Below, one piece after another: positions 2,339 through 37,254 of a stretch of 42,607 bases of DNA. The notes beneath the pieces are model-generated. The model saw only the letters and a list, made by a program, of their open reading frames with translations, made no database searches and was not told the origin of the DNA. Source of the DNA: an uncultured Acidimicrobiaceae bacterium (GTDB lineage: Bacteria > Actinomycetota > Acidimicrobiia > Acidimicrobiales > Bog-793); NCBI GenBank assembly GCA_903845085.1, contig CAIMWD010000043.1:1-42607 (forward strand), read 5' to 3'. Positions within the stretch are counted from its first letter, which is position 1. Each line of letters starts with the position of its first letter. The position numbers and the translations under genes were made by a program.

Positions 2339-3147
2339 TGGCTCCAGGAGCAAATGAACCAGCTGACGACCTTCCCAAAGATGCGCATCACCGGCTCGAA
2401 GAGCTCGAACACGGTCTCTTCACCTCTGACCTATCGGTAAATGAGTTTCTTCTCGTCAAAGATGCCGGATTCCATCCACTCGGCTTTGTCATGGGCTCGT
2501 CGATCTACCACATCGGTCTCCAGACCAGGAAGTGGAGCCAGAGTCAGGAGCTCGACAAACTCACGAGCGCGATGTACTCCGCACGTGAGCTGGCGGTCAC
2601 ACGTATGGAGGAAGAGGCGATGGAGCTCGGTGCCGACGGCGTCGTCGGTGTCCGACTGGACGTCAATTACTACGAGTTTGGTGCCGACACCGCTGAGTTC
2701 ATCGCGATGGGCACCGCGATCAAGGCCGAGGATGGTCGCTCCTACCGTAACGCCGAGGGCAAACCGTTCACCTCTGACCTCTCGGGTCAGGCATTTTGGA
2801 CGCTGCGGAGGGTCGGCCATCTTCCGCTGGGTCTCGTGATGGGTACCTGCGTGTACCACATCGCCCATCGTGGGATCGGCCAGACGATGGGCTCGGTCGG
2901 TAAGAACCTGGAGCTTCCCAACTACACCCAGGCGCTCTATGACGCCCGTGAACTTGCCATGACACGGATGCAAGATGAGGCAAACCGCCTCGGAGCCTCG
3001 GGCATCGTTGAGGTGAAACTCATCGAGAAGTCCCACATGTGGGGAAGCCATACGATCGAGTTTCTCGCGCTCGGCACCGCGGTGACAAAGGAGGAGGGGG
3101 CGCCTCCGCTCCCCCAGATTCAGTCGACGATCTCGCTCGACAACTGA
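2338..3147 (+). CDS. Tandem double-domain YbjQ/UPF0145 (DUF74, putative heavy-metal-binding domain) protein, paralog 1
   Basis: Two modules. Each starts with FTSDLS followed by G(F/H)xPLG(F/L)VMG. Each ends with a YbjQ-like core: ARELAVTRMEEEAMELGADGVVGVRLDV...AMGTAIK and ARELAMTRMQDEANRLGASGIVEVKL...ALGTAV. Confidence 0.8.
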   Translation: MAPGANEPADDLPKDAHHRLEELEHGLFTSDLSVNEFLLVKDAGFHPLGFVMGSSIYHIGLQTRKWSQSQELDKLTSAMYSARELAVTRMEEEAMELGADGVVGVRLDVNYYEFGADTAEFIAMGTAIKAEDGRSYRNAEGKPFTSDLSGQAFWTLRRVGHLPLGLVMGTCVYHIAHRGIGQTMGSVGKNLELPNYTQALYDARELAMTRMQDEANRLGASGIVEVKLIEKSHMWGSHTIEFLALGTAVTKEEGAPPLPQIQSTISLDN

Positions 3148-3149
3148 CC

Positions 3150-4043
3150 ATGACGAACGCCACCGCCGCATCGGCTCCCATCGCAGCCGGAGCGTGGACC
3201 TCTGGGCTTTCCACCGCAGAGTTTGCTGCCACGCTCGAGGCCGGCCTCACCCCGCTGGGTTTCGTCCAGGGCTGCTCCGTCGTGAACTGGAATTTCTACG
3301 GGTTTGGCCTGAACTCTCTCGGTCTTGGCGGTGGACAGCTCTCGGGATACAGCGAGCAGTACAGCTGCCCGCACGGCATCGTCTCAAACGAGCACCGTAG
3401 GTACGGACTCAACTACGAGAAGACTTGGCTTGAGCGCGCCTATAAGAGCTCCTTCGCCGCTGCAAAGGAGCGACTCGTCAATGAGGCGCGTGCTATGGGG
3501 GCCTGCGGCGTCATCGATATCGTCGAGCGAACCGAGTATCACAGCGAATCAGGTGCCTTTGAGTTCACGCTGAATGGCACCGCGGTGGGTCTCTCTGGAG
3601 TCGCACCACCCTCGACCCCCTTCACCACCTATCTCGCCGGACAGCGCTTTAACCGTCTCATCGAGGCAGGCTTTGTTCCCGTTGAGATCACGCTCGCGAT
3701 CAGTGCAATAGGTGTCTACTCCTCCTGTGTCACGGAGTACCAACTCCGCGGCGCGGGAGCGACGGGACTCGGATTTGGGCAGATGTCCTACGGTGCGATT
3801 CCCGCCGGAGAGATCACGCAGATCACCAATGCGGAGATCGCTGCACGTTCACTGGTACGCGAACAGCTTCGACCGCAGCTCCACGGCGACATCCTGCACG
3901 GTGCGTTGCTAAAAGTTCGATCCCATGAGAGCGCCGAGGGTCCGCAGATAGAGGCGATCCTGCAGGGGACTCGTGTGCGTCAGTACCGAGATTTCGCCCC
4001 GATCGCTCCTCCCCGACCGGTGATCAGGTTGGTCGACCGATGA
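3150..4043 (+). CDS. Divergent tandem double-domain YbjQ-like protein, paralog 2
   Basis: ATG at 3150 lies 2 nt after the previous stop, so the longer ORF from 3039 was rejected. Module starts are WTSGLSTAEF...GLTPLGFVQG and FTTYLAGQRF...GFVPVE. Core: KERLVNEARAMGACGVIDIV...LNGTAVG. A long Gly/aromatic/Cys insert sits in module 1. Confidence 0.7.
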   Translation: MTNATAASAPIAAGAWTSGLSTAEFAATLEAGLTPLGFVQGCSVVNWNFYGFGLNSLGLGGGQLSGYSEQYSCPHGIVSNEHRRYGLNYEKTWLERAYKSSFAAAKERLVNEARAMGACGVIDIVERTEYHSESGAFEFTLNGTAVGLSGVAPPSTPFTTYLAGQRFNRLIEAGFVPVEITLAISAIGVYSSCVTEYQLRGAGATGLGFGQMSYGAIPAGEITQITNAEIAARSLVREQLRPQLHGDILHGALLKVRSHESAEGPQIEAILQGTRVRQYRDFAPIAPPRPVIRLVDR

Positions 4044-4888
4044 ACGAGGGGTTACCGAAGGATCTCCGCGCAGCGATAACCGCGCTTGGCGCTACCGGCG
4101 CCGCATCGACGACAGCTCGATCGATCACCTCCGACCTCTCGATCGATGAGACGCTCCTCCTGCACCAGATGGGTTTTGGCCCGGCCGATCTCGTTACCGG
4201 TTTCTCCATCGTCGCTATTCCCTACGGCACCTTCCTCAATCAATACGGACAGAGCGAACCGGTAGATCTGCCCGGTGCAACGAACGCCACCCTCGCCGCC
4301 TTTACCAACGCCATCGAACGGATGCGAGATGAGTGCCAACGGGCGGGAGGAATCGGTGTCGTGGGCGTAGAGGTGAAGGTGGAGGTGGCCGGTTCCTCGG
4401 TGTCGGTTGCGCTCTCTGGGACGGCGATCAATCCACTGGCGAGTGGCCAACGCCGTACCAAAGCAAGTCCCTTTGTCACCGACCTCTCCGTCCGTGACTA
4501 CGCCCTGCTGACCCGTGCAGGGTGGGGGCCGCTCGAGTTGGTCATCGGTGCAGGGTTCGTCGCCGCGCCACCACAACGTCTCGGTCAAGTGATGAGTCAG
4601 GCACGACAGAACGTCGAACTTCCCAATATCACTCTCGCGCTCCAACGGGCACGCGAGCAGGGGATGGAGCGGATGCAACAGGGCGCGATCGCGCACCACG
4701 CAGCCGGTGTTGTCGATGTGACCATCATCGATGGACCACTGGGGCACTCACATCATGTCTGCGCCTTCATCTGTTTTGGCACTGCAATCGAACTGATCGC
4801 TGAGCGACACCAGCTAATTGAGCCCCAGCTCATCCTCCCCCTCGACGACAGCTTTGACTTCGAGGCGACAGCGCTTCGGGGCGATTGA
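4040..4888 (+). CDS. Tandem double-domain YbjQ-like protein, paralog 3
   Basis: ATGA start/stop overlap at 4040-4043. Module starts are ITSDLSIDETLLL...GFGPADLVTG and FVTDLSVRDYALL...GWGPLELVIG. Cores: IERMRDECQRAGGIGVVGVEVKV...LSGTAI and MERMQQGAIAHHAAGVVDV...CFGTAI. Confidence 0.75.
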   Translation: MNEGLPKDLRAAITALGATGAASTTARSITSDLSIDETLLLHQMGFGPADLVTGFSIVAIPYGTFLNQYGQSEPVDLPGATNATLAAFTNAIERMRDECQRAGGIGVVGVEVKVEVAGSSVSVALSGTAINPLASGQRRTKASPFVTDLSVRDYALLTRAGWGPLELVIGAGFVAAPPQRLGQVMSQARQNVELPNITLALQRAREQGMERMQQGAIAHHAAGVVDVTIIDGPLGHSHHVCAFICFGTAIELIAERHQLIEPQLILPLDDSFDFEATALRGD

Positions 4889-7003: not shown

Positions 7004-8551
7004 GTGAGCAGACCTACGACCACTACGCTCAACCGCGTGAGCCGCCACCCACATCGAACGTCCGTGGCGCGATCGTTTGAGCGACTCCGAGCTCACCCAG
7101 CGCTCGCCCTCTCGCATCTTCTCGTCGCTGGCCTCGTCATCTTCGTTGCCACCTGGCGACTTGGCGTCGCAGATGCCGCACCCGACGAATACACCTATCG
7201 CACCTGTGCTCGCGAGTATCTCTCGGGGGTATTTACCTGTAACCGCGAGCATCCACCACTGGTCAAGGAGATCCTGGCGCTCGGGATCTCCCTCGGTCAC
7301 GCGACCCTCGCCGATGCCCGACTCATCACCGCCCTTGCTGCGATCGCTACGGCATTCTTTTGCTATCTCTTTGTCACCGACGTCACCGATCGTGTCGGAG
7401 GGCTCTTTGCTGCGGCGCTTTGGGGACTCCTCCCTCAGCTGGGACGTGAGGGATCGAGCTCCCTAGAGGTGATCCGTATCGATCGATACGCGCTGATCGA
7501 TCCCTTCCTCGCGGCGCTCTTTGCCATGGCGCTCGCTCTCACCTGGCGCTACATCAGCCGTGGTGGTAGAGGTTACGCGCTCGTAACTGGCGCTGCACTC
7601 ATGCTGTTGCCGCTCGCGAAGGCACCGGGCGCTGCGATCGCCGTCGTCTTGGGTTGCTTTGCCCTCGGTGCGCGCCGGAGGGAGGAGGCGCGTTTGATCA
7701 CCCCTCTCTTCCTCCTCATTGGGGCACTCGTCGTCTTTGCCAGTGTTTACGCACCACTGGGTATTCACGGCACAGAGCAGCAGCTCTCCTACATGTTGCA
7801 CTTCAAATTCAATCGTGCGGTCGTCGTCGCCGGCCACCTCTATCAGCGAACACCGTGGTGGGCCGATCTCAGCTTCGCGGCGGCCGGTATCGGACTTGCA
7901 CCTCTGATTGTGCTTGGATGCTTCGGCCTCTCCGGACTCTTGCGACGTACCCTCCCCGTGGCAATGGCGCTGAGTAGCGCGCTCGCGCTTATGCTCTTCG
8001 TGGCGTTCGGTGTGCACCTCTCCTCGCCCACCTACTACGTCGAGTGGGAGCCGGGTCTCATCGTCGGTGGTGCAATCGGGCTCCGCAGCCTCACCATTGC
8101 GCCACCGATCAAGCTTCCTCTGATCTCCGTGCCGTTACTTCTCGGCGCGGTCATTATCCTGTGCACCGCGATGGTCACCGATCTCGTCGACCTCACGGCG
8201 ATCTCACCGGGTCCCTATGCGACGAGTGCAGCAAAGATGCACTGCACCACACCCTGCGTCGTGGACTATGTCGCCTATAACAACATCCCGGTGAGCTACA
8301 CGGAGGCGACGATGACGCTCCTCCTCGAGCCGCCGGTGGGTCATCGGCAACTACGTCATAACCCCCGCTATGTCGCGATCGACCCCGCTCTCTTTTTGAT
8401 ACATCCTGGGTGGCGAAAGATCGTGAACCGTTTCATTGCGCATGCGGCCTCCCTTGGCTATCAAAGGGTCACCACGGGGACACGCATTGAATTATTTACT
8501 CAGCTTGGCTCATCTCACACCGCCGCTACTCCCACCACATCTGGCCCTTAG
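7004..8551 (+). CDS. Polytopic membrane glycosyltransferase, GT39/PMT_2-like (phospholipid carrier-dependent)
   Basis: About 12 hydrophobic segments. The first loop carries a DE...Y...EHPPLVK motif typical of PMT/ArnT-type GT-C enzymes. The GTG start at 7004 is unverified. Confidence 0.6.
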   Translation: MSRPTTTTLNRVSRHPHRTSVARSFERLRAHPALALSHLLVAGLVIFVATWRLGVADAAPDEYTYRTCAREYLSGVFTCNREHPPLVKEILALGISLGHATLADARLITALAAIATAFFCYLFVTDVTDRVGGLFAAALWGLLPQLGREGSSSLEVIRIDRYALIDPFLAALFAMALALTWRYISRGGRGYALVTGAALMLLPLAKAPGAAIAVVLGCFALGARRREEARLITPLFLLIGALVVFASVYAPLGIHGTEQQLSYMLHFKFNRAVVVAGHLYQRTPWWADLSFAAAGIGLAPLIVLGCFGLSGLLRRTLPVAMALSSALALMLFVAFGVHLSSPTYYVEWEPGLIVGGAIGLRSLTIAPPIKLPLISVPLLLGAVIILCTAMVTDLVDLTAISPGPYATSAAKMHCTTPCVVDYVAYNNIPVSYTEATMTLLLEPPVGHRQLRHNPRYVAIDPALFLIHPGWRKIVNRFIAHAASLGYQRVTTGTRIELFTQLGSSHTAATPTTSGP

Positions 8552-18672: not shown

Positions 18673-18842
18673 GCTCTCTCCCAATGGTCGTTGCTCCGGC
18701 TCATGCTGCGCCGCCTTCGATGAGCATATGCCCTCTACCTCACCGCAAGATTGAGAGGGTGGCGAGTAGCGTAAGGAGGTCGCTCCCGAGGGGAATGCGG
18801 TGTGTCGTGTCCGATACGCCACGCGAGCATCAAGGAGAATGC

Positions 18843-21755
18843 ATGTCCGACACGGAGGACCAGACCGAGGAGCTGCGACGCGTCGTCGAACGCGATCGGG
18901 CGATCTTTCGGACCGTCATCGCGTTCGCGATCTCTGCAGCCGTTTCGCTGCTGCTCTGGCATCACATCGGTCACACGCTGACGGGAAAGACCGATGTCGT
19001 CGGCTACCCACTCTTTGCGAACTTCAACGTCAATCGATACTTCGATGCCTTCTACCTGAGCGCCATAGTCGGCCCACTGCTCTTTCTCTGTACCTACGAG
19101 GTCATCGCTCGCGTCGGTCCGCTGCGCCGCAGCGTCGGCCGCAGGCGTGCGGATCGGAGAGAGCTGGTCGCTGACGGCGATGAGCTTCGCGAGCCGAGCA
19201 ATCGTTCGGGGCGCGTGCTGCGAGAGCTAATACGCCTACTGGGTGTCGGAGCACTACTCGGTGTCGAGATCGTCGCGGCAACCGCCATCACCTCGCCCTC
19301 GAGTCCGATGAGCGAGGTTTCGATCGCACTCGCCTACACGGGCGCAGTTGGACTCATTGCTCTCGTGATCGCCCGAGTGGTCACCACACGGAGCTGGCGC
19401 TCCGTCGCGAGTGCCGTGAACCTCCTCGGCGTAGGCGCGATGATGCCACTCCTCTACGGCATCTCTCAGGCCACCAGCGTCACCATCGCCTCTACACATC
19501 AGGTCATTCCCTACCATTGGATGCCACTTTGGGTACCGGTCGCCTTTGACCTTGCACTGATCGCCTATGTCGGTCACCGACGGATACGAAACGGTCACTC
19601 TGTTGCTCGGATCGAACAGGCGCTCATCCTCTTCGTCGCCATTCCCATCGTCATCTTCACCCTGCACGCCAACCTCCCTGGCGCGCTCGGTCCCATGGAC
19701 CCCTTCGGCGACGGGGAGTACCTCGCTGCCGGTTGGATGATGATCCACGGTGTCATGCCCTGGCGAGATCTCTACCTCATCCACGGTGTCTTCGATGATG
19801 GTTTCAAGGGCCTGATTGGCTACGCACTCTTTGGCCCAAGTCGATGGGCATCGGTTGCGGGAATCTCACTTCTGTTAAATCCGATCTACTGGGTCTGCCT
19901 CTACTACTTCGGCGCCCTGCTCTTTCGGCGGCGTCCCCTCTTCATCCTTGGACTCGCCCTCGCCGTCACTATCGGTGTCTTTGTCGATCAGGATCCCCGC
20001 TACACCTTTTGGCCACTGGTGCTCGTCCTTCTCGCTCGCGTTCTGAAGGTCCGCAGCTGGCCGAGGGTTCTCGCATTCGTCATCGCACTTCTCATTCAGG
20101 CGATCCTCATTCCGGAGATGGCCTTTGCACTCGCCGCCTGCGCACTTACGCTCGTCGCCTTTGAGATCTATGAGCGCAGGGGACCTCGACTCGAACTCCG
20201 GGATCTGAGGACGACTGCTCTCACGGTTCTCTTTGGTGCCATCTTTGGCGGAGGCTTCCTCATCTGGCTGGTCGCCGAACATGCGATCACTGGATTCGTC
20301 GGTTATTACCGCAACTTTGCTGACGCACACTCGCTCGTCGGAGGCATACCGCTCTATACGAACTACGCCGTGGGCACCTCCACCAGCGCACTCGGCGTGA
20401 CCCTCCATGCGGTCGCGATCCCACCGTCGTTTACCCGATACAGCATTGAGCTCATTGTGCCAGTACTCGCGATCATTGCGACAATCGCGCTCATCACCGT
20501 GCGAGTGCGGACCGGTCGTCGGCTCGTCATCCTCGATTGGCTCTCTATCGCCGCAGCGATCATGGTCACCCTCTACTACCAGAAGGGGATCAGCCGTGGC
20601 GACACGGGCCACATAGCGGAGGTTTACGCCGTCGCGACGCCGCTCCTCATCCTGCTGACCTATCAGCTGGTCGTGGGACTCGAACGTGCCCCTCTCCTCA
20701 CCCGGCAGATCGCAAGACTTCACAGTCTCGGAGCGAGTGCACGAAATCGCCTCGTTGGTCGAGCGGTTGTCCTCATTCCCAGATCTCCAATCGCACTCCT
20801 TAGCGTGATCGCTCTCTTGATCCTCGCACCCTCCACCATCAACGCAGCCATCGTCAATGTGAACTGGTTTATGCGCGCGAGCGCTCCGACACCGGCGGAG
20901 GGTGGATTCGTCGCCGGGGGGCCCACACTTGGTTACAACGTGAATGCGATCGACAAGGTCGCTGTCAGCGATATCCGTACCATCTTCGACCGGTATGCCG
21001 GGACTGATGGCGCCGTCTTCGACTTCTCGAACACGCCTGCAGTTGTCTCCTACCTGCTCAACCGCAAGCTTGCCTCGCAGTTCTACAACATCAATGACGT
21101 ACTCACGCCTGCGGCGCAGGCAACGCTGATCTCCGAGCTCACGCTCTCCAAGCCGGTGGTTGTCCTCTTCAACGGACTAGGCATGGGGGCATGGGACTTC
21201 ATTCCCAATGAGATCCGCGATTCCACGGTATCTGACTACCTCCTGACGAACTACCACCCACTGGTCTATGCAGACGGCCAGCTCCTCCTCCTTCGCAACG
21301 GTACAAAGCATCATGGAGGCCTTCCCCATCTTGCGGGGCCGACGCGAACCGTGCGCCTCTACTCTGCGCTGGGAACCTGTGATTGGGGCTACATCCCGAA
21401 CTACCTCCAAACACCGACCACGCCGTCGATACCGCCGAAGCAGCCCTCGCTGAGCCTCGGACTTAAGTTCATTGCCCATACCGCCGATGGAACGATCTAC
21501 CAACTCAGCCGAGTCACCGACCTCCAGAGCTATCACTGGATCTCGGCAACGGTGCAGGGGGCCACGGGCGATGTCGGACTCTCGATATCGAGCTTTCCAC
21601 GCAAATCCAATCGTGACATCACCTGGATCTCGCAGGGATCGACGACAACTCAGGTAGAGGTAGCGAGTTGCCTGCAATGGCATGGCTATGAACATCAACT
21701 CTTCCTCCGTTACTTAGGCGCGGGACATCCCAGTGCCCTTACGCTGATCGGTTGA
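18843..21755 (+). CDS. Large polytopic membrane protein (970 aa) with a C-terminal soluble domain, function unknown (possibly GT-C-like)
   Basis: ATG at 18843 with AAGGAG at 18832-18837. Roughly 15-20 hydrophobic segments over the first ~700 aa, then a ~270-aa hydrophilic domain. No family motif recognised with certainty. Confidence 0.75.
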   Translation: MSDTEDQTEELRRVVERDRAIFRTVIAFAISAAVSLLLWHHIGHTLTGKTDVVGYPLFANFNVNRYFDAFYLSAIVGPLLFLCTYEVIARVGPLRRSVGRRRADRRELVADGDELREPSNRSGRVLRELIRLLGVGALLGVEIVAATAITSPSSPMSEVSIALAYTGAVGLIALVIARVVTTRSWRSVASAVNLLGVGAMMPLLYGISQATSVTIASTHQVIPYHWMPLWVPVAFDLALIAYVGHRRIRNGHSVARIEQALILFVAIPIVIFTLHANLPGALGPMDPFGDGEYLAAGWMMIHGVMPWRDLYLIHGVFDDGFKGLIGYALFGPSRWASVAGISLLLNPIYWVCLYYFGALLFRRRPLFILGLALAVTIGVFVDQDPRYTFWPLVLVLLARVLKVRSWPRVLAFVIALLIQAILIPEMAFALAACALTLVAFEIYERRGPRLELRDLRTTALTVLFGAIFGGGFLIWLVAEHAITGFVGYYRNFADAHSLVGGIPLYTNYAVGTSTSALGVTLHAVAIPPSFTRYSIELIVPVLAIIATIALITVRVRTGRRLVILDWLSIAAAIMVTLYYQKGISRGDTGHIAEVYAVATPLLILLTYQLVVGLERAPLLTRQIARLHSLGASARNRLVGRAVVLIPRSPIALLSVIALLILAPSTINAAIVNVNWFMRASAPTPAEGGFVAGGPTLGYNVNAIDKVAVSDIRTIFDRYAGTDGAVFDFSNTPAVVSYLLNRKLASQFYNINDVLTPAAQATLISELTLSKPVVVLFNGLGMGAWDFIPNEIRDSTVSDYLLTNYHPLVYADGQLLLLRNGTKHHGGLPHLAGPTRTVRLYSALGTCDWGYIPNYLQTPTTPSIPPKQPSLSLGLKFIAHTADGTIYQLSRVTDLQSYHWISATVQGATGDVGLSISSFPRKSNRDITWISQGSTTTQVEVASCLQWHGYEHQLFLRYLGAGHPSALTLIG

Positions 21756-22162: not shown

Positions 22163-23683
22163 TTAGGCCGGCGTAACCACCGGTACCGCGGCTACCGCGC
22201 GCGGCAATTCCATCGTGATCGTCGTCCCACTGCCGAGCACCGATTCCACACGAACCGTGCCATGGTGTGCGCTTACAATCGATTCGACGATTGCGAGCCC
22301 CAGACCGGATCCACCGCTTCCTCGCGTTCGAGAGGAATCAGCGCGGTAGAAGCGTTCAAAGATGTGAGGCAGATGCTCTTTGGCGATACCGGGCCCATGG
22401 TCGATGATCTCTACCCGTGCACGATCACCCTCCTCGGTGACGCGTAGTTCAATCGGCGTCGTCTCCGGGGTGTGCTTCAACGCATTTTGGAGCAGATTGA
22501 GCACGACCTGGTGTAGTCGCGAGAGATCGCCGGTCACCATCACATCAGGGGCGACCTCCACCGTGATCTGGCGATCTGGGGCTATTGCCTGTGTGTCTGC
22601 CGCAGCATCAAGCGCAAGATCTGAGATCGAGAGCTCACGCATCTCGAGTTCACGACCCTGATCGAGACGGGCGAGGAGGAGGAGATCGTCGACCAAGAGC
22701 CCCATGCGGATCGCCTCCTCCTCGATACGGCGCATCGAGAGTGCGAGATCCTCCGGTCGGCTTTGCGCTCCTCGACGGAAGAGCTCTGCATAGCCACGGA
22801 TTGAGGTCGTCGGAGTGCGTAGCTCATGGCTCGCATCGGCGAGAAACTGACGGAGCTGTTGCTGCGAGGCCTCCTGTTGGAGAAACGCATCCTCGATATA
22901 GCCGAGCATCGTATTGAGCGAGGCGCCGAGTCGTCCAACCTCTGTCGATGGATCATCTTGCTCGATCCGGCGCGAGAGATCACCCGCAGCGATCTCCGCG
23001 GCGGTGCGCTCGATATCTTCGAGCGGTCGCATACCGATCCGCACGACGATATATCCGAGCAGGATGAGAGCCGCAATTACCGCTGCCGTGACGGTTAGGT
23101 CTACGACAAGGAGGGTGTTCATCGTTCCTGCGACACCCGAGAGCGGCAACGCAACGAGAGCGAGTGCCGGTTCGCTTGGCCCGAACCCCACCTCAGAGCG
23201 AACGACGTAGAGCTCTGGACGTACACGAAAGACCCCAAGTTTGCTGCCATTGCTCGTGGCAGTCGCAGCAAAGATTGGCTGCTGGGAGACCGAACCCGCG
23301 ACAACCTCTGCACGCAGCATGCTCAAAATCGATCCGGGGATCTGCAGTTTGACCGATGAGTTGGTCGATCCGACAACCGTGGAACTACCGTCGAGTTCGG
23401 GGAGGATCACCTTGATGTAGGTGCCGGTCGGCAGCTCCTGATTCGGCGCGAGCTGCACCTGTCCCGAGGAGGTGAGATTGAAGTTGCCCGGCTGGATCGC
23501 AAGGAGCTCCTGATCGATCTGGGTAAGGAGATAGGAGTGAATCTGGCTGTAGATGACGACATCGGCGGCGACGAGGCCAGCGATCACGATCGAGACAACA
23601 CCGATCAGGATCCGTGCCCGAAGTGACAGATGTCGCGAGACGCGGTGGACGCGCACGAGAATCCTCGCGCCGAGGCTCGACAT
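22163..23683 (-). CDS. Sensor histidine kinase (TM - extracytoplasmic domain - TM - HAMP - HisKA - HATPase_c)
   Basis: H-box FLADASHELRTPTTSIRGY, N-box LLQNALKHTP, G-boxes IDHGPGI and GGSGLGLAIV. The start abuts the response-regulator stop. Confidence 0.92.
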   Translation of the reverse strand: MSSLGARILVRVHRVSRHLSLRARILIGVVSIVIAGLVAADVVIYSQIHSYLLTQIDQELLAIQPGNFNLTSSGQVQLAPNQELPTGTYIKVILPELDGSSTVVGSTNSSVKLQIPGSILSMLRAEVVAGSVSQQPIFAATATSNGSKLGVFRVRPELYVVRSEVGFGPSEPALALVALPLSGVAGTMNTLLVVDLTVTAAVIAALILLGYIVVRIGMRPLEDIERTAAEIAAGDLSRRIEQDDPSTEVGRLGASLNTMLGYIEDAFLQQEASQQQLRQFLADASHELRTPTTSIRGYAELFRRGAQSRPEDLALSMRRIEEEAIRMGLLVDDLLLLARLDQGRELEMRELSISDLALDAAADTQAIAPDRQITVEVAPDVMVTGDLSRLHQVVLNLLQNALKHTPETTPIELRVTEEGDRARVEIIDHGPGIAKEHLPHIFERFYRADSSRTRGSGGSGLGLAIVESIVSAHHGTVRVESVLGSGTTITMELPRAVAAVPVVTPA

Positions 23684-24385
23684 CTAGGCGGCGTTTACGG
23701 GGGTGCGCAGGCTATAGCCAGCGCCGCGCAACGTGTGGATCAAGGGCGGCCCCAGAGAATCGATCTTCTTGCGGAGATAACTGATGTAGGTCTCTACGAC
23801 GTTTGCGTCACCATCGAAGTCATACTCCCATACGTGATCGAGGATCTGTGCCTTCGAGAGCACCCGACGGGGGTTCATCATGAGATAGCGCAGAAGTTTG
23901 AACTCGGTCGGCGTCAGCTCGATCGAGGTACTCGAACGAAATACCTCTCGTGTCTCCTCGTCAAGTTCGAGATCGGAGAAGGAGAGACGAGCGGTTGTCT
24001 CCGTTGCATCGAGCGCGCGGCGAAGAACCGCTCGGATCCGCGCAAGTAGCTCCTCGAGACTGAATGGCTTTGTGACATAGTCGTCTCCACCAAGTGTCAA
24101 TCCACGCACCTTATCCTCGGTCGCATCCTTGGCTGTGAGGAAGAGAATCGGCACACGTTGCGCATCCTGACGAAGCCGCCTTGCGACCTCAAAGCCATCG
24201 AGGTCGGGCAACATCACATCCAACACCAGCATGTGCGGGCGGAACGCCTCGACCTGCGCGAGGGCCTCGCGACCGGTTGCCGCGGTCGCTACCTCAAATC
24301 CCTCATAGCGCAGCGCCGTCGCGACAAGCGAGGTGATGTTCGGTTCGTCGTCGATCACAAGGACGCGGGTGGTAAGTGTCTCCAT
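23684..24385 (-). CDS. OmpR/PhoB-family response regulator
   Basis: Receiver VLVIDDEP...LDVMLPDLDG...LTAKD. Winged-helix output LTPTEFKLLRYLM...VETYISYLRKK...IHTLRGAGYSL. Confidence 0.93.
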   Translation of the reverse strand: METLTTRVLVIDDEPNITSLVATALRYEGFEVATAATGREALAQVEAFRPHMLVLDVMLPDLDGFEVARRLRQDAQRVPILFLTAKDATEDKVRGLTLGGDDYVTKPFSLEELLARIRAVLRRALDATETTARLSFSDLELDEETREVFRSSTSIELTPTEFKLLRYLMMNPRRVLSKAQILDHVWEYDFDGDANVVETYISYLRKKIDSLGPPLIHTLRGAGYSLRTPVNAA

Positions 24386-30172: not shown

Positions 30173-31248
30173 CCGAGAGAAAGAGTCCCATCAAGGTCGC
30201 TATTGCCGGCGTCGGCAACTGCGCCAGCTCACTGATCCAAGGAGTGGAGTACTACCGCGAAGCAGATCCTGAGGAGTTCGTTCCCGGTCTCATGCACGTG
30301 GAACTCGGCGGGTACCACGTGCGCGATCTCGAGTTCGTCGCCGCCTTTGACGTCGACGCCTCCAAGGTCGGCCTCGATCTCGGCAAGGCAATCTTCTCTG
30401 GTCGCAACAACACGATCAAGTTTGCGCCGGTCCCCGAGCTCGGGATCACCGTTGATCGTGGACCTACCTATGACGGACTTGGCAAGTACTACCGAACCGT
30501 CGTTGATGAGTCACCGGTCGAGCCCTGTGATGTTGCTGCTGTTTTGCAGGCGACCGGTGCCGAGGTCCTCGTCTCCTATCTCCCTGTTGGCTCGGAGCAG
30601 GCACAGAAGTTTTACGCCAGCGAGGCGATCAAGGCAGGTGTCGCCTTTGTGAATGCGGTTCCGGTCTTTATCGCGAGTGACCCCGAGTGGGCACAGAGGT
30701 TCACCGATGCGAATGTTCCAATTATCGGTGACGACATCAAGAGCCAGGTTGGAGCGACCATCGTTCACCGCGTACTCGCCCGACTCTTTGAAGATCGCGG
30801 TCTCGTGCTTGATCGCACCTACCAACTCAACGTCGGCGGCAACATGGACTTTATGAACATGTTGGAACGAGAGCGCCTCGAATCGAAGAAGATCTCCAAG
30901 ACCCAAGCGGTCACCAGCCAGCTCGATCACAAGCTGCCAGCAGACTCCGTGCACATCGGTCCCAGTGACCACGTGGCCTGGCTCGAGGACCGCAAGTGGG
31001 CCTACATCCGTCTTGAGGGTCGCAACTTCGGTGATGTTCCACTCAATGTGGAGATGAAGCTCGAGGTGTGGGACTCTCCCAACTCCGCAGGGGTGATCAT
31101 CGATGCGGTTCGCTGTGCGCGGATCGCGTTAGATCGCAAGATCGGTGGCCCGATCCTCAGCGCCTCTGCCTACTTCATGAAGTCGCCGCCGGTGCAGTAT
31201 CGCGATGAGGCAGCTCGACTCATGGTAGAAGAGTTCGCGAACGGCTAA
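30169..31248 (+). CDS. ino1: myo-Inositol-3-phosphate synthase
   Basis: [48 protein letters not shown] and KSPP motifs. Confidence 0.94.
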
Positions 31249-31460
31249 CTCGTTCGCACCGGTGTCGTGAGATTGTTTCGATGCTCCCGATGCCGCCACC
31301 ATTCCTGTGATCTTCGGAGCTCGGAGATCTCCTCGCCTCGCTTGCGAGATACATGACCCGAGGCGAGTTCATCAAGAAAACTATTGATTCTCTTGACGAG
31401 ATCCCTCGTGTCGCACTGGAACCGCCCGTTGCGAAACCATCGATGAGAGCGCTCGTTCAA
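31245..31460 (-). pseudogene. Questionable 71-aa ORF, possibly a C-terminal remnant of an IS630-type transposase, or spurious
   Basis: HRWFRNGRFQCDTRDLVKRINSFLDEL loosely resembles the W...N+.F.....L...I..F C-terminal pattern of IS630/Tc1-type transposases. There are no inverted repeats and no DDE region. The ORF sits next to the pilin locus. Confidence 0.2.
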
Positions 31461-31471
31461 GGGTGCCGAAA

Positions 31472-32242
31472 TTAATACGCACCACTCTGTGTAGAGGTAA
31501 TCCCATTCGACGTTGTGGTCACGGACCAGGTATCGCCCGTAAAGGGGTGAACTGCCCCGGTTCCGCCGAACTGTGCACCGATCTGCCCGTTTGCGTAATT
31601 CGCGGGGATGGACTGATTCGAAGGTTCATTGTAGGTATAGGTGATGTATCCACCCGAAGTTGTGTTGTTCATATTCACTGCCCCACCGGGAAAGCTGTTG
31701 AACTGGGTGACGTAGGTCACCCCACTCGTCTGCGCCACCGTAATCGTGATGCTCATATTGGTAATGGCATAGCTGTTCGTAAAGGTGAGCGTCTCCGTAC
31801 CATTGCCATTATTTACACTCTGCGTCGGGTTCACTAGGAGGCCATTTGACCGCGGCAGTGTCGTCGTCGTAGAGGTAGTGGTCGAAGTAGTCGTTGAGGT
31901 AGTTGTCGAGGTAGTTGTCGAGGTCGTGGTAGTGCTCGGAAGTGTCGTCGTACTCGATGACGTCGTGGTCGTGCCCGAAACAGTGGTCGTTGTCCCTCCC
32001 ACAGCGGTGGTCGTGGTCGCACCTGCAATTGTCGTGACTGAGGCCGCGCCATCGCAGGCTCCGGAGGTGGTGTACACGACAGGGGTCGCAGAGGGGGGTG
32101 CCGCGACCATCACCTGTGCGTTGTTGTTTGCATCCGCCGTGATCGTGATTGCGTAATCGGGACTCGAGGGATACGACCTCAGGTAGGGCTTTGTGCCGCT
32201 TGTAAGGTCACTCGGCGTCGGCACTCCAGTAGCGCCGGTCAA
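31472..32242 (-). CDS. C-terminal portion of a type IV pilin-like protein: pilin globular part, Thr-rich linker and an Asn/Thr-rich beta domain. Same frame as 32246-32440, separated by one TAG
   Basis: The frame is identical to the upstream pilin ORF (32440-32242 = 198 nt). The only possible start is a TTG one codon after the TAG, without an RBS. It has no signal peptide of its own. Confidence 0.6.
   Translation of the reverse strand: MTGATGVPTPSDLTSGTKPYLRSYPSSPDYAITITADANNNAQVMVAAPPSATPVVYTTSGACDGAASVTTIAGATTTTAVGGTTTTVSGTTTTSSSTTTLPSTTTTSTTTSTTTSTTTSTTTSTTTTLPRSNGLLVNPTQSVNNGNGTETLTFTNSYAITNMSITITVAQTSGVTYVTQFNSFPGGAVNMNNTTSGGYITYTYNEPSNQSIPANYANGQIGAQFGGTGAVHPFTGDTWSVTTTSNGITSTQSGAY
31859..32038. 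repeat. Thr-rich low-complexity coding repeat, with a core (TSTT)n encoded by 12-nt periodic units
   Basis: Protein: ...TTTTAVGGTTTTVSGTTTTSSSTTTLPSTTTTSTTTSTTTSTTTSTTTSTTTT. The + strand shows gtagtcgttgag gtagttgtcgag gtagttgtcgag periodicity at about 31859-31936. Confidence 0.9.
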
Positions 32243-32245
32243 CGT

Positions 32246-32440
32246 CTAATAATCAAGGACCGCCTGCTCCACACTCTGTGCATCGGTCTGACAGGCCGCA
32301 ACCGAGGCCGATGACGACGTGCCACCAAGTGCAAAGACCACGATGCCAGCGAGCACACCCAAAACCACAATGACAACAAGGAGCTCAATAAGTGAAAATC
32401 CCCGCTCATCTCGAGTTCTTTTACGAAGATGGGATCGCAT
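32246..32440 (-). CDS. Type IV pilin N-terminal segment (prepilin-type cleavage/methylation domain), ending at an in-frame TAG
   Basis: MRSHLRKRTRDERG|FSLIELLVVIVVLGVLAGIVV is a class III signal peptide with the G/FxxxE motif and the hydrophobic alpha-1 helix. The ORF stops after only about 50 mature residues. Confidence 0.8.
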   Translation of the reverse strand: MRSHLRKRTRDERGFSLIELLVVIVVLGVLAGIVVFALGGTSSSASVAACQTDAQSVEQAVLDY

Positions 32441-32554
32441 TTTGAGTTGGCCTCTTCTTATGGCGCCGTCACAATGATTTTCGCAACAGACAGCATGTTA
32501 CCCAATTACTACTAAAGTAAAAATCATAAGTTTCTTTTGCTCACACTTGGACCC

Positions 32555-33982
32555 TTAATGGCTCTCATTCCACCATTTCAGCAATCGTCGCGTTGCCTCT
32601 GACTCCCCCAGAAGTCCCTCCTCGAGGCGTAATTCCAAGAGAAAACTCAGTGCACGACCCACCTCTTTGCTCGGTGAGAGCCCCAACAGCGTCATGATCT
32701 GCTCGCCATCAAGTTCCGGCCGAATTGCGTCCAGCGCCTCGCGCTCATTGAGCTCTGCCAGACGGACCTCCAGATCATCCATCGCGGCACTGAGTTCACG
32801 CACCTTGCGCTCATTCCTCGTCGTGCAGTCCGCTCGAGTGAGTTCATTGAGCTTCCCGACGAGTGGTCCTGCATCGCGGGCATATCGACGCAGCGCCGAA
32901 TCGGTCCATCCCATGCGATAGGTATGAAACCGGAGGTGAAGCTCCACTAGCTTGACTACCTCATCGATGTCGTCACCGGAGTAGTGCAGAGTCGTCATGC
33001 GCTTACGCGTCATACGTGCGCCGACCACCTCATGATGATGAAAGGAGACACCGTTCTCTCCGAAGGCGCGCGTCTTCGGTTTGCCCACATCATGGAAGAG
33101 TGCGGAAAGTCGCAGCAGTCGATCGGGTCGGGTCTGACAGACGACGGCGATGGTGTGCGCAAGCACATCTTTATGCCGATGCACCGGATCCTGTTCAAGC
33201 TCAAGGCCATCGAGTTCGGGTAGAAACTCCGAGGAGAGGCCGTGATGCACGATAAACCACAGCGCCATCTCGGGGTTAGGAAGCACGATGATCTTGTCGA
33301 GCTCGTCGCGGATCCGCTCGACCGAGACGATCGCGAGCCGATGATGCAGCGCTACCACGGCCTCGATGAGCTCTGGTGCGGGGGTTAGCTCATAGCCGGC
33401 GTGAAATCGAGCGGCTCGCAACATTCTCAGCGGATCATCGTTAAATGAGGACTGTGGGTCGATCGGCGTACGCAGTACACGACGGGCTAAGTCGCCAATG
33501 CCATCGAAGGGGTCCACGAGTACCAGATCCGGTAGTCGCAGCGCCATCGCATTCACCGTAAAATCACGCCGCGAGAGGTCCACCTCAATCTCATGGCCAA
33601 AGACAACCTCTGGTTTTCGTGAATCGGGTGAATAGGCCTCGGCGCGATGTGTGGTGATCTCAAAGTCCCGGCCGTGGTGCCGAAATCCAATAGTGCCAAA
33701 GCGACGTCCCTGCGTCCACATGGCCTCCGCGATCGGGCGAACGATCGCCTCAATCTCATCGGGAGGCGCATCGGTCGTCATATCGATGTCAGCTTCGGTG
33801 GCTGAGGCCGTCGTCGAAGCGGTGGATTCGCGATAGAGCGGAGTCGATTCCTGTCCCGGTCGGCCCGCGATCGCATCCCGCACGGTTCCGCCAACTAGAT
33901 ACAGCGAGCGGTTCGCGGCAACAAAACGCTCGGCAATCTCGCGCGTTGCTGCAATTACCGGTAAGAGTCGCGGCGGAATCAT
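32555..33982 (-). CDS. cca: CCA-adding tRNA nucleotidyltransferase / poly(A) polymerase family protein with HD domain
   Basis: LYLVGGTVRDA, DIDMTT, RDFTVNAM and RMLRAARF motifs, plus the HD region LFHDVGKP. Confidence 0.9.
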   Translation of the reverse strand: MIPPRLLPVIAATREIAERFVAANRSLYLVGGTVRDAIAGRPGQESTPLYRESTASTTASATEADIDMTTDAPPDEIEAIVRPIAEAMWTQGRRFGTIGFRHHGRDFEITTHRAEAYSPDSRKPEVVFGHEIEVDLSRRDFTVNAMALRLPDLVLVDPFDGIGDLARRVLRTPIDPQSSFNDDPLRMLRAARFHAGYELTPAPELIEAVVALHHRLAIVSVERIRDELDKIIVLPNPEMALWFIVHHGLSSEFLPELDGLELEQDPVHRHKDVLAHTIAVVCQTRPDRLLRLSALFHDVGKPKTRAFGENGVSFHHHEVVGARMTRKRMTTLHYSGDDIDEVVKLVELHLRFHTYRMGWTDSALRRYARDAGPLVGKLNELTRADCTTRNERKVRELSAAMDDLEVRLAELNEREALDAIRPELDGEQIMTLLGLSPSKEVGRALSFLLELRLEEGLLGESEATRRLLKWWNESH

Positions 33983-35181: not shown

Positions 35182-37254
35182 ATGAGACATCGACACCTCC
35201 TCTCCCCACTGCTATCGGTAGGAATCGCGGCGCTCATCATCGGGGTAATTTCTCCGCGGATAAACGCCGCGAGCGCGGCACCGGCTGCGACAGGACTCAC
35301 CCTGGTCGCACAGACCAACTGGGTCACACAGAACTCCGGATTTAATGTGACCCTCGCGGCGACAGGAACTGCGGCCGCAACGGATCTCGGGCTTCGCGTT
35401 GCGCTCTACCCCCGACTTTCCAGTCGATATGCCCTCGAAAATAACCCACTCGAGGGATCACCCAGCGAGATCTACCCCTCGTTGAATTTCCGTGGCGGAA
35501 CGCTCCACTTTCGAGTTATCGGTATCGCAGGCAGTGAAAGTGGTCTCCCGAGTGCCCGCACCCTACGACTCGATTGCGTTGCCAACACCTGCACCGGCGT
35601 CTACCCCATCGCCTTTTCCTTGATCGATCGGTCGAGTCGTCGCGTCGTCGCCAGTCTCACGACCTCGTTGATCTATTTAGACACCACTCACGCGGCGACA
35701 CCCCTCCGGGTAGCGATCACGCTGCCGATGGACCTCACCCCATCTGAGGTCACCCAGGCACAACCGCTGTCGCGGGGTCGAGCAGCCGGCATCAACTCAG
35801 TGGTGCACACGATTGCAACCGCAGGAGTCCCACTCTCACTCAATCTCTACGGTCGTCTCCTCCAACGCCTCATGCTTGATGCCAACGCAGGTTCGAGCGA
35901 TGCCACGGTCGCGCACGCCACCATCGTTGCGTTGCGTCGGCTTACCCTTCACCACCAAGAGATCCAACTCCTTGCCTCAACGTTCGCGCCACTCGACCTC
36001 AACGCAATGGATCGAGCCCCGAAAGTCCAGCGCACCACCTACGCCGCTCAACTTGCCACTACGCAGGCGCTCGATACCTCCGAACTTCACCTCTCCTCAC
36101 CCAGCTCCAGCGCCGCGATGCCATCGGTCCTCAGCTCAAGTGCCGTGGCGATGCTCGGACAGTCTGGACTCTGTAACCTCGCGCTTCCCGAAAGTGCGGT
36201 CTCGCTCTCCGAGAGCGGCCAGACGGTGGATGCTCCCTTTCGTCTCCTCAACACCAACTGCAACGGCCTGCCAATCCACTCCGTTGCCATCGTCTCGGGG
36301 CTCTCCAATGAGATGAACAGTTCGCCGCAAAATCCAGTTCTCGCGGCGCATCAGCTCGTGGCCGATCTCTCTCAGACCTACTTTGAGAACCCCAACGCCC
36401 CTCAGCCACGGGGCGTCGCAGTGATGCCCGCGACGTGGCAAAACTCGCCACTATTTATTAGCACCCTTGTCAGCGCCCTTCACGCCAATCCGGTGTTACT
36501 CCCCGTCACACTCGCCTCACTTTTCACTCAGGTCCCTGACGGCGCAAACGGCGAGGCCACAGCCGGCATCGTGACCGGGTCAACCACCTCCGCACCGATC
36601 ACTCGCCTCATGTTGAGTACTGCCTACGGTTCGCTGAACCGCGTCCGCGAGGTGCTGCCCAACGACTCCGCCGTCACCCAAGGCCTTCGCGCCGACATCT
36701 TCAATGCAGAGAGTATTGGTCTCACGGCTTCGGCGCGCCATTGGCTGCTCACTCGTTCAGATGCGGTACTTGCAGGCCTCGCTCACACGCTCGGGCTCTC
36801 CGGACCCTCACATGTCACGCTCACCGCCTCAAGCGGCAAGATCCCGATCACTATCCACTACACCGGAGGCTCGTACCCGCTCAACCTCCTACTCCGAATT
36901 AAGAGCTCCATCCTTGACTTCCCCGCGACTGAGGTCAGCCAGCACCTCGCCCTCGATCACGCCGACACCAACGAGGTATTGCACGTCAGCTCACGCACCT
37001 CCGGTGAGACGACCTTTACTATTGAGCTCCTGACGCCCTCAGGTGGGCGTGTTCTGCTCGCGCCCACAACGTTCACCGTTACCTCCACCGCCGCATCAGG
37101 AGTGGCCATCGGATTAAGTATCGGTGCGCTGTTGGTACTTGCGCTTTGGTGGTCCCGTTCGATTCTGCGCCATCGACGTGAGAAACTGGCCAAAGTTGCA
37201 GCTCACCCCCACGATGGGAACTCAGCAGGAGAGCCAGGGCCACACCTTCGATGA
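35182..37254 (+). CDS. Secreted, membrane-anchored conserved protein upstream of murJ (Rv3909-like, DUF6049-type)
   Basis: N-terminal signal peptide, a large Ser/Thr/Ala/Leu-rich ectodomain, and one C-terminal TM (VAIGLSIGALLVLALWW). ATGA overlap with murJ. The assignment rests mainly on conserved position. Confidence 0.6.
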   Translation: MRHRHLLSPLLSVGIAALIIGVISPRINAASAAPAATGLTLVAQTNWVTQNSGFNVTLAATGTAAATDLGLRVALYPRLSSRYALENNPLEGSPSEIYPSLNFRGGTLHFRVIGIAGSESGLPSARTLRLDCVANTCTGVYPIAFSLIDRSSRRVVASLTTSLIYLDTTHAATPLRVAITLPMDLTPSEVTQAQPLSRGRAAGINSVVHTIATAGVPLSLNLYGRLLQRLMLDANAGSSDATVAHATIVALRRLTLHHQEIQLLASTFAPLDLNAMDRAPKVQRTTYAAQLATTQALDTSELHLSSPSSSAAMPSVLSSSAVAMLGQSGLCNLALPESAVSLSESGQTVDAPFRLLNTNCNGLPIHSVAIVSGLSNEMNSSPQNPVLAAHQLVADLSQTYFENPNAPQPRGVAVMPATWQNSPLFISTLVSALHANPVLLPVTLASLFTQVPDGANGEATAGIVTGSTTSAPITRLMLSTAYGSLNRVREVLPNDSAVTQGLRADIFNAESIGLTASARHWLLTRSDAVLAGLAHTLGLSGPSHVTLTASSGKIPITIHYTGGSYPLNLLLRIKSSILDFPATEVSQHLALDHADTNEVLHVSSRTSGETTFTIELLTPSGGRVLLAPTTFTVTSTAASGVAIGLSIGALLVLALWWSRSILRHRREKLAKVAAHPHDGNSAGEPGPHLR

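Follow-up and report, generated by a model that had tools for sequence, protein, structure and literature searches.

The stretch of DNA analysed here (the window: 42,607 nucleotides from an uncultured Acidimicrobiaceae bacterium) carries on its minus strand a type IV pilin-like gene interrupted by a stop codon. The gene begins with an ATG at 32440-32438, preceded at a distance of 10 nt by a Shine-Dalgarno-like GAAGAGG (32451-32457, direct sequence reading), and its first 64 codons (MRSHLRKRTRDERG, then FSLIELLVVIVVLGVLAGIVVFALGG...VLDY) lead to an in-frame amber codon, TAG, at 32248-32246 (context GAT TAT TAG ACG). Past this codon the same frame continues for 257 sense codons (TLTGATGVPTPSDL...SGAY) as far as 31475 and is closed by a TAA (31472-31474), the stop of the ancestral full-length frame, which aligns with the C-terminus of all homologues (...SG.F/Y and stop). 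A minus-strand scan of 31200-32700 found no sigma-70-like promoter or terminator. The neighbours of the gene are ino1, PadR, panB, cca, an HDAC-like gene and murJ, and genes for a prepilin peptidase, an assembly ATPase or a platform protein are absent from the larger ORFs of the window.

Chance does not account for the open downstream frame, because only 2 of 20,000 shuffles of its 771 nt were stop-free and because both halves of the gene align end to end with full-length homologues (E down to 2e-64). By direct reading, the downstream part has no ATG and no usable Shine-Dalgarno sequence, and it lacks a hydrophobic signal or signal peptide: the TTG two codons (4 nt) past the TAG has no Shine-Dalgarno sequence, and the GGAG near a GTG 22 nt past the TAG abuts that codon and is not at functional spacing. 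The peptide YLRSYPSSPDYAITITADANNNAQVMVAAPPSATPVVYTTSGACDGAASV is included in this downstream part. The two ORFs belong to a single gene. The initial annotation had described a pilin-like gene split by a single in-frame TAG, with a downstream ORF that continues the pilin head in the same frame and has no ATG, ribosome-binding site or signal peptide, and with no other pilus assembly genes in the window; all of this has held, the last point for the larger ORFs.

The prepilin signal that had been recognized in the 64-aa ORF is likewise confirmed by profile matches, to PF07963 (N_methyl; E 1.1e-8, 34.7 bits, above the gathering score of 21.2) and to TIGR02532 (E 2e-8). The class III (prepilin) leader, M1-G14 (MRSHLRKRTRDERG; 32399-32440), has a predicted prepilin-peptidase cleavage site after G14, and the motif at this point (RG, then FSLIELLVVIVVLGVLAG) shows on direct reading the G-1, F+1 and E+5 of a type IV pilin N-terminus. 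The mature segment that precedes the stop, F15-Y64 (32249-32398), comprises 50 residues which, judging from the homologue alignment and the AF2 model of a full-length homologue (P0007), are nearly the whole of alpha-1 and include the conserved C50. The rest of the pilin head module falls in read-through residues 66-132 (32045-32245), where alignments and AF2 place a PYL.S.PSSP.Y motif, a small beta-sheet and C129. The two cysteines thus flank the stop, one on each side, as had been noticed earlier, and the alignments add that both are conserved in the family. In the model of the full-length homologue (pLDDT above 90), alpha-1 spans residues 24-75 and strands occupy 100-122, which is the lollipop fold (an alpha-1 of about 50 residues with a small beta-sheet head). 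The same strands were modelled in the window's downstream part (31-37 and 43-48, with pLDDT about 80-85 at residues 11-60); in the window's own gene the fold is interrupted by the TAG, whose equivalent in the homologue is T72, in the last turn of the modelled alpha-1.

The head is followed by a disordered, Thr/Ser-rich linker (read-through residues about 133-196, at 31853-32044; pLDDT below 50 at model residues 67-118), which contains a 12-nt tandem repeat (TSTT units, 31866-31924) and which the alignment shows in all homologues, at variable length. The C-terminal residues, 197-322 of the read-through sequence (31475-31852), were modelled by AF2 as a beta-sandwich of about 125 aa with nine strands (pLDDT above 90), CBM-like and belonging to no Pfam family. 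The best Foldseek match of this module was to CBM2a 6qfs (E 1.5e-4, 25% identity, TM 0.50), and further matches were to 3ndy, 5dhd and 2czn, to the cohesin-like module 2jh2 and to chitin-binding domains; the match to the CBM2 fold is not specific, as cohesin and Ig-like domains score equally. Searches at the level of sequence were negative: Pfam gave no match at E up to 1 for this C-terminal domain or for any of 27 from the family, NCBIfam and profile-versus-PDB-sequence searches gave nothing relevant, and hhalign against the CBM2a of Cellulomonas fimi Cex (PDB 1exg/6qfs) returned a probability of 0.4%. The module therefore lacks a sequence-family match to CBM2 (Pfam CBM_2), and shares with that family a beta-sandwich fold appended to glycoside hydrolases. 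A profile of the module found 642 representative proteins (clusters at 50% identity), and about half of 60 long matches carry enzyme domains to which the module is C-terminal: GH5 (10), GH10 (5), GH113 (4), GH9 (3), LPMO10 (2), GH48, GH6 and GH12. It also occurs alone and on unrelated proteins. From the models, the module appears to be CBM2/cohesin-like by fold, and its association with glycoside hydrolases and LPMO proteins points to a predicted carbohydrate-binding pilin tip. Two confidently modelled domains with a disordered linker between them characterize a modular pilin, and this architecture belongs to the ancestral frame only; the full-length product was correctly described in the initial annotation as a 322-aa modular pilin.

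A family of 46 single-ORF homologues (280-335 aa), mostly from Acidimicrobiia MAGs, matches the read-through sequence at about 100% coverage (44-55% identity, E 2e-64 to 1e-21), and the downstream part of that sequence keeps 47 of the 56 family-conserved columns, which is within the range of intact members, with mostly conservative mismatches. When homologues were aligned at the TAG, as had been proposed earlier, the column proved to be a sense codon in all 46 proteins and in all 75 scored genomic loci, the genome scan having been run with a 12-sequence alignment. The residues among the protein homologues were E (14), N (13), D (11), I (3), M (2), T (1) and R (1), and the codons in the 75 loci included AAC (26), GAG (14) and CAG (9) as well as others; full-length loci from GTDB genomes (L007-L016) have intact ORFs. 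Given that the TAG column is always a sense codon in homologues, the split is derived, and not a conserved PilA-N/PilA-C arrangement. The genes of the family are orphans, situated away from pilus clusters, and related Acidimicrobiaceae MAGs have T2SSE (7), T2SSF (4) and Peptidase_A24 (4) beside short pilin paralogues. No homologue locus shares the ino1/cca synteny, and protein searches, a GTDB genome scan and JGI metagenome scans found no close orthologue above about 55% identity (best 46-55%), so that both the age of the mutation and the codon that preceded it are read from paralogue-level alignments only.

Among the long-read MAG homologues, four loci (L020, L050, L080 and L029) have frameshift-type disruptions that are probably errors. 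One of these, L029, has an in-frame TGA at the same place as our TAG, and was rejected as a parallel case: reading in the +1 frame gives back the family consensus GFETENA, and one extra G in a G-run is needed to come back into frame, which indicates a compensating pair of indels, probably long-read errors.

The amber codon itself is not an assembly error, since five further contigs, which represent at least three biosamples and at least two SNP haplotypes, have the same TAG. These contigs (L003, L004, L005, L006 and L087 in our locus numbering) come from ERZ18625878, ERZ18626004 and ERZ18625689 (SAMEA6872775, -776 and -774), ERZ27313087 and Logan ERR4195092. The haplotypes differ at window positions 32514 and 31523, conspecific contigs show three SNPs in all, and past the stop the coding sequences of these contigs differ only by a synonymous change of TCC to TCG (n = 1). 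MAG contigs are not free of single-base errors, and the probable frameshift errors just mentioned are a reminder of this, but for the true genome to have a sense codon here would require the same mistake in six independent contigs from different assemblers (scaffold-type, MEGAHIT k141 and Logan) that differ at other sites, and would require it at a substitution, not a homopolymer indel. We regard such an artefact as extremely improbable. The initial annotation had suggested either a recent nonsense mutation or a sequencing error; the second of these can be set aside, and the first stands. Exact-sequence look-ups gave TAG-bearing copies only, and no intact (sense-codon) allele was found in any sample. 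The TAG allele is genuine and, in its habitat, a common one, with the qualification that all the samples that carry it are seemingly from one study, and that its spread may reflect only a locally clonal population.

Might the amber codon nevertheless be translated? A near-cognate or suppressor tRNA could decode it at low frequency, by leakage or under regulation, to give a little of the full-length 322-aa modular pilin, and even a small yield could be enough for a tip pilin of low abundance. In favour of this, the downstream frame has no interruption and has kept its family-conserved residues, the TAG is present on more than one haplotype with the one downstream coding SNP being synonymous, and the codon is followed by an A, which in E. 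coli makes for a relatively weak fourth-base context. However, TAG is a normal terminator here, ending 7 of the 37 other provisional genes in the window, which argues against amber reassignment (in the response-regulator gene at 23684-24385, the terminal TAG abuts the ATG of a kinase gene). Moreover, the window contains no tRNA gene, and around the stop there is neither an RNA structure that might stimulate read-through (fold z = -0.04) nor an Rfam element. We see no sign of programmed recoding of the TAG, and the lack of a stop at this column in any homologue gives no hint that such recoding is conserved. All in all, read-through seems to us unlikely.

It might also be supposed that the truncated product is functional in its own right. 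The pilA-N and pilA-C genes of Geobacter sulfurreducens are each translated on their own, are conserved throughout the Desulfuromonadales and belong to the pilBTCSRA cluster (PMC6201914). As in that split pilin, the short prepilin of the window ends right after alpha-1 and is followed by beta-strand-rich sequence resembling the missing head, and the 50-residue, alpha-1-only product might conceivably assemble as PilA-N does, the downstream part being dispensable or reinitiated at the TTG. Leader, E+5 and hydrophobic alpha-1N are all undamaged, the Shine-Dalgarno sequence is good, a TTG is at hand 4 nt past the TAG, and the mature 50 aa resemble the short Geobacter pilin (PMC6201914). Unlike the Geobacter genes, however, the two parts share one frame divided by a single stop, the second part is without a start, ribosome-binding site or signal, relatives all have the gene undivided, and the 42.6 kb contain no pilus cluster; thus separate translation signals, a conserved split and a pilus-cluster location, which together distinguish the Geobacter type, are all three missing. 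In addition, the truncated peptide would retain a Cys whose conserved partner lies downstream, a C-terminal product made by reinitiation would, for want of a signal peptide, not leave the cytoplasm (where a Thr-rich linker and a CBM-like module have no evident role), and one contig has the substitution D53V at a family-invariant residue. A functional short pilin is, in our judgement, very improbable, and the split in the manner of PilA-N/PilA-C that had been envisaged for this locus finds no support, given the single continuous ORF, with a sense codon, of every homologue found, and the want of a start, ribosome-binding site and export signal downstream. We are also quite doubtful of the wider idea that the TAG is being kept in the population, whether for an assemblable 50-residue, alpha-1-only pilin or for a low, tunable read-through that gives a few binding-tip filaments. 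If this were nevertheless true, the locus would offer a live snapshot of short or split pilins of the Geobacter style arising from full-length ones.

We therefore think it likely that the orphan modular type IV pilin gene of this Acidimicrobiia-type actinobacterium carries a recent amber nonsense allele, most probably no more than an ordinary loss of function by mutation and not a split by design. The ancestral protein would have had four parts: the prepilin leader, a pilin module consisting of a long alpha-1 helix and a small disulfide-bonded head, a flexible Thr-rich linker that was probably O-glycosylated, and a C-terminal beta-sandwich that most likely bound plant or fungal polysaccharide. 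Processed by prepilin peptidase, the intact form would have entered a type IV filament, probably at its tip, and so displayed the substrate-binding module. A single base substitution would then have changed a sense codon in the last turn of alpha-1 to TAG; GAG, CAG and AAG, each one change away from TAG and all three present at this column in relatives, are candidates for the ancestral codon. Translation would now halt after 64 residues, and cleavage of the leader would leave only alpha-1, as a peptide of 50 residues whose Cys has no partner; the head, the linker and the binding module would go unmade except through rare leakage of the stop codon. The allele would seem to be young, as the 257 codons downstream are free of further lesions, and a recent origin also agrees with their retention of 47 of the 56 conserved columns. 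An undecayed downstream frame would also be expected of a functional read-through gene, and a TAG shared by several haplotypes, together with a sole downstream SNP that is synonymous (n = 1), is compatible with continued selection.

The stop codon by itself matters little, nonsense alleles in genes for surface structures being common. Of wider significance is the finding that soil and peat Acidimicrobiia, which are little studied and for the most part uncultured, possess a family of orphan type IV pilins, the C-terminal module of which is common to many cellulases, xylanases, mannanases and LPMOs and yet has no Pfam model. If the module does bind polysaccharide, it would represent a new family of CBM-like modules (642 representatives when clustered at 50% identity) and would indicate pilus-mediated attachment to plant biomass in Acidimicrobiia, and the natural amber allele would then be a ready-made knockout for population comparison.

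Finally, we consider how this predicted protein relates to better-known systems. Like the CBM2s of actinobacterial cellulases, it has a C-terminal beta-sandwich of about 100-125 aa behind a linker rich in hydroxy-amino acids, although there is no relationship to CBM2 at the sequence level, TM-scores are only about 0.5, and the module is attached to a pilin instead of an enzyme. Type IV pili have been linked to attachment to plant cell-wall polysaccharide in Ruminococcus flavefaciens, Ruminococcus albus and Fibrobacter succinogenes (PMC3672088, PMC6851124), and a tie between pilus subunits and plant polysaccharide would be shared with our case, for which it is only predicted; those organisms are gut anaerobes, not Acidimicrobiia of soil or peat, and no report was found of a separate CBM-like module on a linker in their pilins. 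The closest parallel is with the modular type IV pilins, such as PilB and PilC of Streptococcus sanguinis, which carry a vWA and a lectin module respectively, and CofB of ETEC (Raynaud et al., 2021, PMC8179133). These differ in having a short loop where the present family has a Thr-rich, disordered linker of about 60 aa, and the extra module of the family described here has no Pfam or InterPro-type signature; the genes of this family are also orphans, away from pilus clusters, and the copy in the window is interrupted by an amber codon. In their general plan, however, the read-through product and all 46 homologues agree with the modular pilins in possessing a class III signal peptide, a small pilin module, a linker and an additional C-terminal module, and the role proposed for modular pilins is likewise the binding of a ligand by a module that the filament presents, probably at its tip (PMC8179133).

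The pilin gene is preceded by a Shine-Dalgarno-like GAAGAGG (32457-32451, minus strand), separated by a 10-nt spacer from the ATG at 32440 (-), from which an ORF of 64 codons (its product reading MRSHLRKRTRDERG and then FSLIELLVVIVVLGVLAGIVVFALGGTSSSASVAACQTDAQSVEQAVLDY) runs to an amber TAG at 32248-32246 (-). In the same frame, 257 sense codons follow, as far as a TAA at 31474-31472 (-). The N-terminal ORF is matched by two models of the prepilin methylation motif, PF07963 (E 1.1e-8, exceeding its gathering threshold) and TIGR02532 (E 2e-8), and the downstream 257 residues matched no Pfam or NCBIfam model. The length of this open frame is not expected by chance, as two of 20,000 shuffles of its 771 nt were stop-free. 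A prepilin ORF, an in-frame TAG and a same-frame downstream ORF, as described in the initial annotation, are thus borne out in every detail by our reading of the sequence.

What was the earlier state of the gene? A search of 5.8 billion proteins with the read-through sequence (X at the stop) gave 46 relatives of 280-335 aa (about 100% query coverage, 44-55% identity, E 2e-64 to 1e-21), the named members of which come from Acidimicrobiia MAGs. In alignment they share a leader, a GFTLxELL alpha-1 whose alpha-1C part holds a conserved Cys, a head with the motif PYLxSxPSSPxY, a further conserved Cys, a Thr-rich spacer that varies in length, and a C-terminal domain, also conserved, that spans about 125 aa and finishes with GDTWSVTSTSxGxTSTxSGxF. 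Scanning GTDB at one genome per species gave 218 relatives, nearly all of them in MAGs of Acidimicrobiaceae or Acidimicrobiales recovered from soil, peat and bog. The alignment of related loci proposed by the initial annotation gives a sense codon at the TAG column in all 46 proteins (E in 14, N in 13, D in 11, otherwise I, M, T or R) and in all 75 loci whose pilin module could be aligned (AAC 26, GAG 14, CAG 9, GAC 4, others); loci L007-L016, which are full-length, each hold one uninterrupted ORF. Since the homologues are single ORFs with a sense codon at this column, comparison of the sequences indicates that the interrupted state is derived. GAG, CAG and AAG, each one substitution from TAG, all occur there.

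A Ferrimicrobium-like MAG carries a tandem pair of family members (L017:10001-11988), the second holding an assembly gap (a run of N). In three proteins of 366-372 aa (P0043, P0045 and P0046) the same Thr linker and C-terminal domain stand on a different N-terminal region, with a hydrophobic segment and without the canonical GFxxxE motif; the sequences suggest that linker and domain have been shuffled as a module among several anchor types.

The exact 64-aa product is recorded on five further contigs, and a one-residue variant (D53V), also of 64 aa, on a sixth. The contigs with the short product belong to assemblies of three biosamples (SAMEA6872774, -775 and -776), and two more to ERZ27313087, assembled in MEGAHIT style, and to the Logan assembly of ERR4195092; in all of them the stop stands in GAT TAT TAG ACG. 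Contig L003, which covers the entire pilin gene, differs from the window (99.89% identity) at two sites, 32514 (intergenic) and 31523 (TCC to TCG, synonymous, downstream of the stop), the former difference being shared with contig L087. Because contigs of several samples share the TAG on at least two haplotypes, assembly error does not explain the stop. The first reading in the initial annotation, a recent nonsense mutation or a sequencing error, therefore divides: a sequencing or assembly artefact is very improbable given the same TAG on further contigs, in three biosamples and on at least two haplotypes, and the nonsense mutation is favoured by the sense codon in all relatives and the TAG in several samples. 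The right explanation is probably a real and recent amber nonsense allele, common locally, that truncates an orphan modular pilin; of those considered it is the likeliest. Protein and metagenome searches returned no intact near-identical allele, a negative that is weaker than it appears, the protein searches having missed the window's own short product too. Several independent assemblies break off downstream of the TAG at a distance of no more than about 180 nt (window position 32152 for L004 and L005, 32200 for L006, about 32070 for L087), and the first 33 nt of L087 (L087:1-33) do not correspond to the 3' end of cca in the window; strain heterogeneity or low coverage around the pilin gene may be responsible.

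Might the amber codon still be read through at a low level? The downstream part matches 47 of the 56 columns conserved in at least 80% of the family, within the range of intact members (0.69-0.98), and therefore appears from its sequence to be free of visible decay; the mismatches are mostly S/T, V/L or F/Y, G108A and L272E being less conservative. Such a frame fits a young mutation and, equally, one that is still used. Against read-through, TAG ends 7 of the 37 provisional window genes (TGA 19, TAA 11), the window contains no tRNA gene, and the 141 nt surrounding the stop are no more stably folded than shuffled versions (z = -0.04) and gave no match in an Rfam search. One of these TAGs (23683-23686, -) ends a response-regulator gene (23684-24385), the ATG of a histidine-kinase gene following immediately and in frame: a normal operon junction, which we took as an internal control for TAG as a terminator in the window's organism. 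We consider low-level read-through unlikely. Still less probable is a functional short pilin with a separate second part, as the gene is split in no relative and the candidate restarts, a TTG two codons past the stop and a GTG 22 nt past it (the start chosen by the gene caller in L003), both lack a Shine-Dalgarno sequence at working distance and would give a protein without any signal peptide, as the initial annotation had said of the downstream part. We see no sign of programmed recoding, nor of a second protein exported on its own. The remaining probability belongs to scenarios that we have not formulated.

An AF2 model of the full-length homologue P0007 (mean pLDDT 80.6) comprises alpha-1 (residues 24-75), a small sheet (100-122), a disordered Thr-rich segment (137-180) and a nine-strand beta-sandwich (202-321). 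The TAG aligns with T72, in the last turn of the modelled alpha-1, and leader cleavage of the truncated product would leave a 50-residue helix that keeps C50 and loses C129, a residue invariant in the 12 closest sequences. In the AF2 model of the window's downstream part, pLDDT is about 80-85 for the head strands and above 90 for the C-terminal domain.

The C-terminal domain (31475-31852, -; P0051-P0195) has no relevant match among PDB sequences, and for 27 family C-terminal domains Pfam gave nothing even at a limit of E 1. With Foldseek, the best PDB match was CBM2a of Cellulomonas fimi Cex (6qfs; E 1.5e-4, 25% identity, TM 0.50), and cohesin-like 2jh2, the archaeal chitin-binding domains 5dhd and 2czn and other Ig-like sandwiches were also among the best; as judged from the model, the fold match is real but unspecific. 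A profile search of 1.84 billion representative proteins gave 642 matches with E of 1e-3 or lower, of which 299 reach 1e-10 or lower; these proteins are 90 to 2,366 aa long, and the domain almost always lies at their extreme C-terminus. Among 60 long matches, Pfam identified GH5 (10), GH10 (5), GH113 (4), GH9 (3), LPMO10 (2) and one each of GH48, GH6, GH12 and pectate lyase, with CBM_3, CBM_6, PA14, fn3 and Ig-type repeats also present; P0082, for example, has GH5 (34-336), then fn3, then the C-terminal domain (564-686). This distribution looks like the classic signature of a carbohydrate-binding module. Because hhalign against Cex CBM2a (sequence verified as 1exg) gave no significant similarity, we describe the domain as CBM-like without assigning it to CBM2. 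This widespread module, represented by 642 clusters and lying outside Pfam, may constitute a new family of carbohydrate-binding modules.

Other disrupted family members were seen. A short pilin paralogue adjoining T2SSE/T2SSF genes (L029:10043-10400, +; CAVWJS010000006.1, Acidimicrobiaceae MAG MFD05512.bin.2.141) has an in-frame TGA at the alignment position of the window's TAG (TAMVRF*DRERGVIG...APYLKSFPSNP); we rejected it as a second nonsense codon, since its +1 frame gives GFETENAV, matching the family consensus, and a pair of compensating indels in the long-read assembly seems to account for it. Frameshifted members in Microflora-Danica-type MAGs (L020:9851-10900, L050:9905-10849 and L080:9236-10844), mostly disrupted within or near the Thr-rich linker, could owe their breaks to long-read errors in homopolymers or repeats, to genuine decay, or to phase variation of the repeat.

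The window is the conserved actinobacterial housekeeping block (in gene order dnaB, rplI, rpsR, ssb, rpsF, panB, PadR, ino1, the pilin gene, cca, an HDAC-like gene, a 690-aa unknown, murJ, trxB and amidase), with metabolic and transport genes in its first 18 kb. As first noted, our gene survey found no pilus-assembly gene among the larger ORFs of the 42.6 kb. The homologues are likewise orphans, each in a different neighbourhood, and none of their loci has ino1 or cca as a neighbour. The lineage nevertheless possesses type IV filament machinery: eight MAG loci with short (about 130 aa) pilin paralogues yielded, by Pfam, T2SSE in seven ORFs, T2SSF in four and prepilin peptidase A24 in four. A 515-aa membrane protein (7004-8551, +) weakly matches PMT/PMT_2 (E 9e-6 and 4e-5, below or near cut-offs), which are GT-C protein O-mannosyltransferase-like; enzymes of that type could in principle glycosylate Thr-rich linkers, but this gene lies as far as 24 kb from the pilin gene. 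The 690-aa ORF just upstream of murJ (35182-37254, +) went unmatched in Pfam at a limit of E 1e-3, as did a 1,023-aa ORF (18684-21755, +) at a limit of E 1e-5. Of two paralogous YbjQ_1-domain genes (2338-3147, +; 4040-4888, +), the first shares 78% identity with a gene of Acidimicrobiaceae MAG 8 (JABEUQ010000215.1; L019:13600-16500), the closest taxonomic anchor seen for the window.

As posed, the interrupted pilin is an ordinary finding; the uncharacterised CBM-like pilin family merits modest follow-up. Geobacter pilA-N/pilA-C form a conserved two-gene operon in the pilBTCSRA cluster (PMC6201914), but the position of the break is all that the window locus shares with them: separate initiation, a conserved split and the cluster context are all absent, and the Geobacter-style split pilin suggested in the initial annotation fails on each. 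The closer comparison is with modular pilins, in which a functional module is grafted onto a pilin module, as in PilB and PilC of S. sanguinis and more than 1,200 InterPro proteins, many more being predicted with modules that lack a database signature (PMC8179133). The ancestral form of the window's pilin fits this definition, and its family is a case of modular pilins without such a signature.
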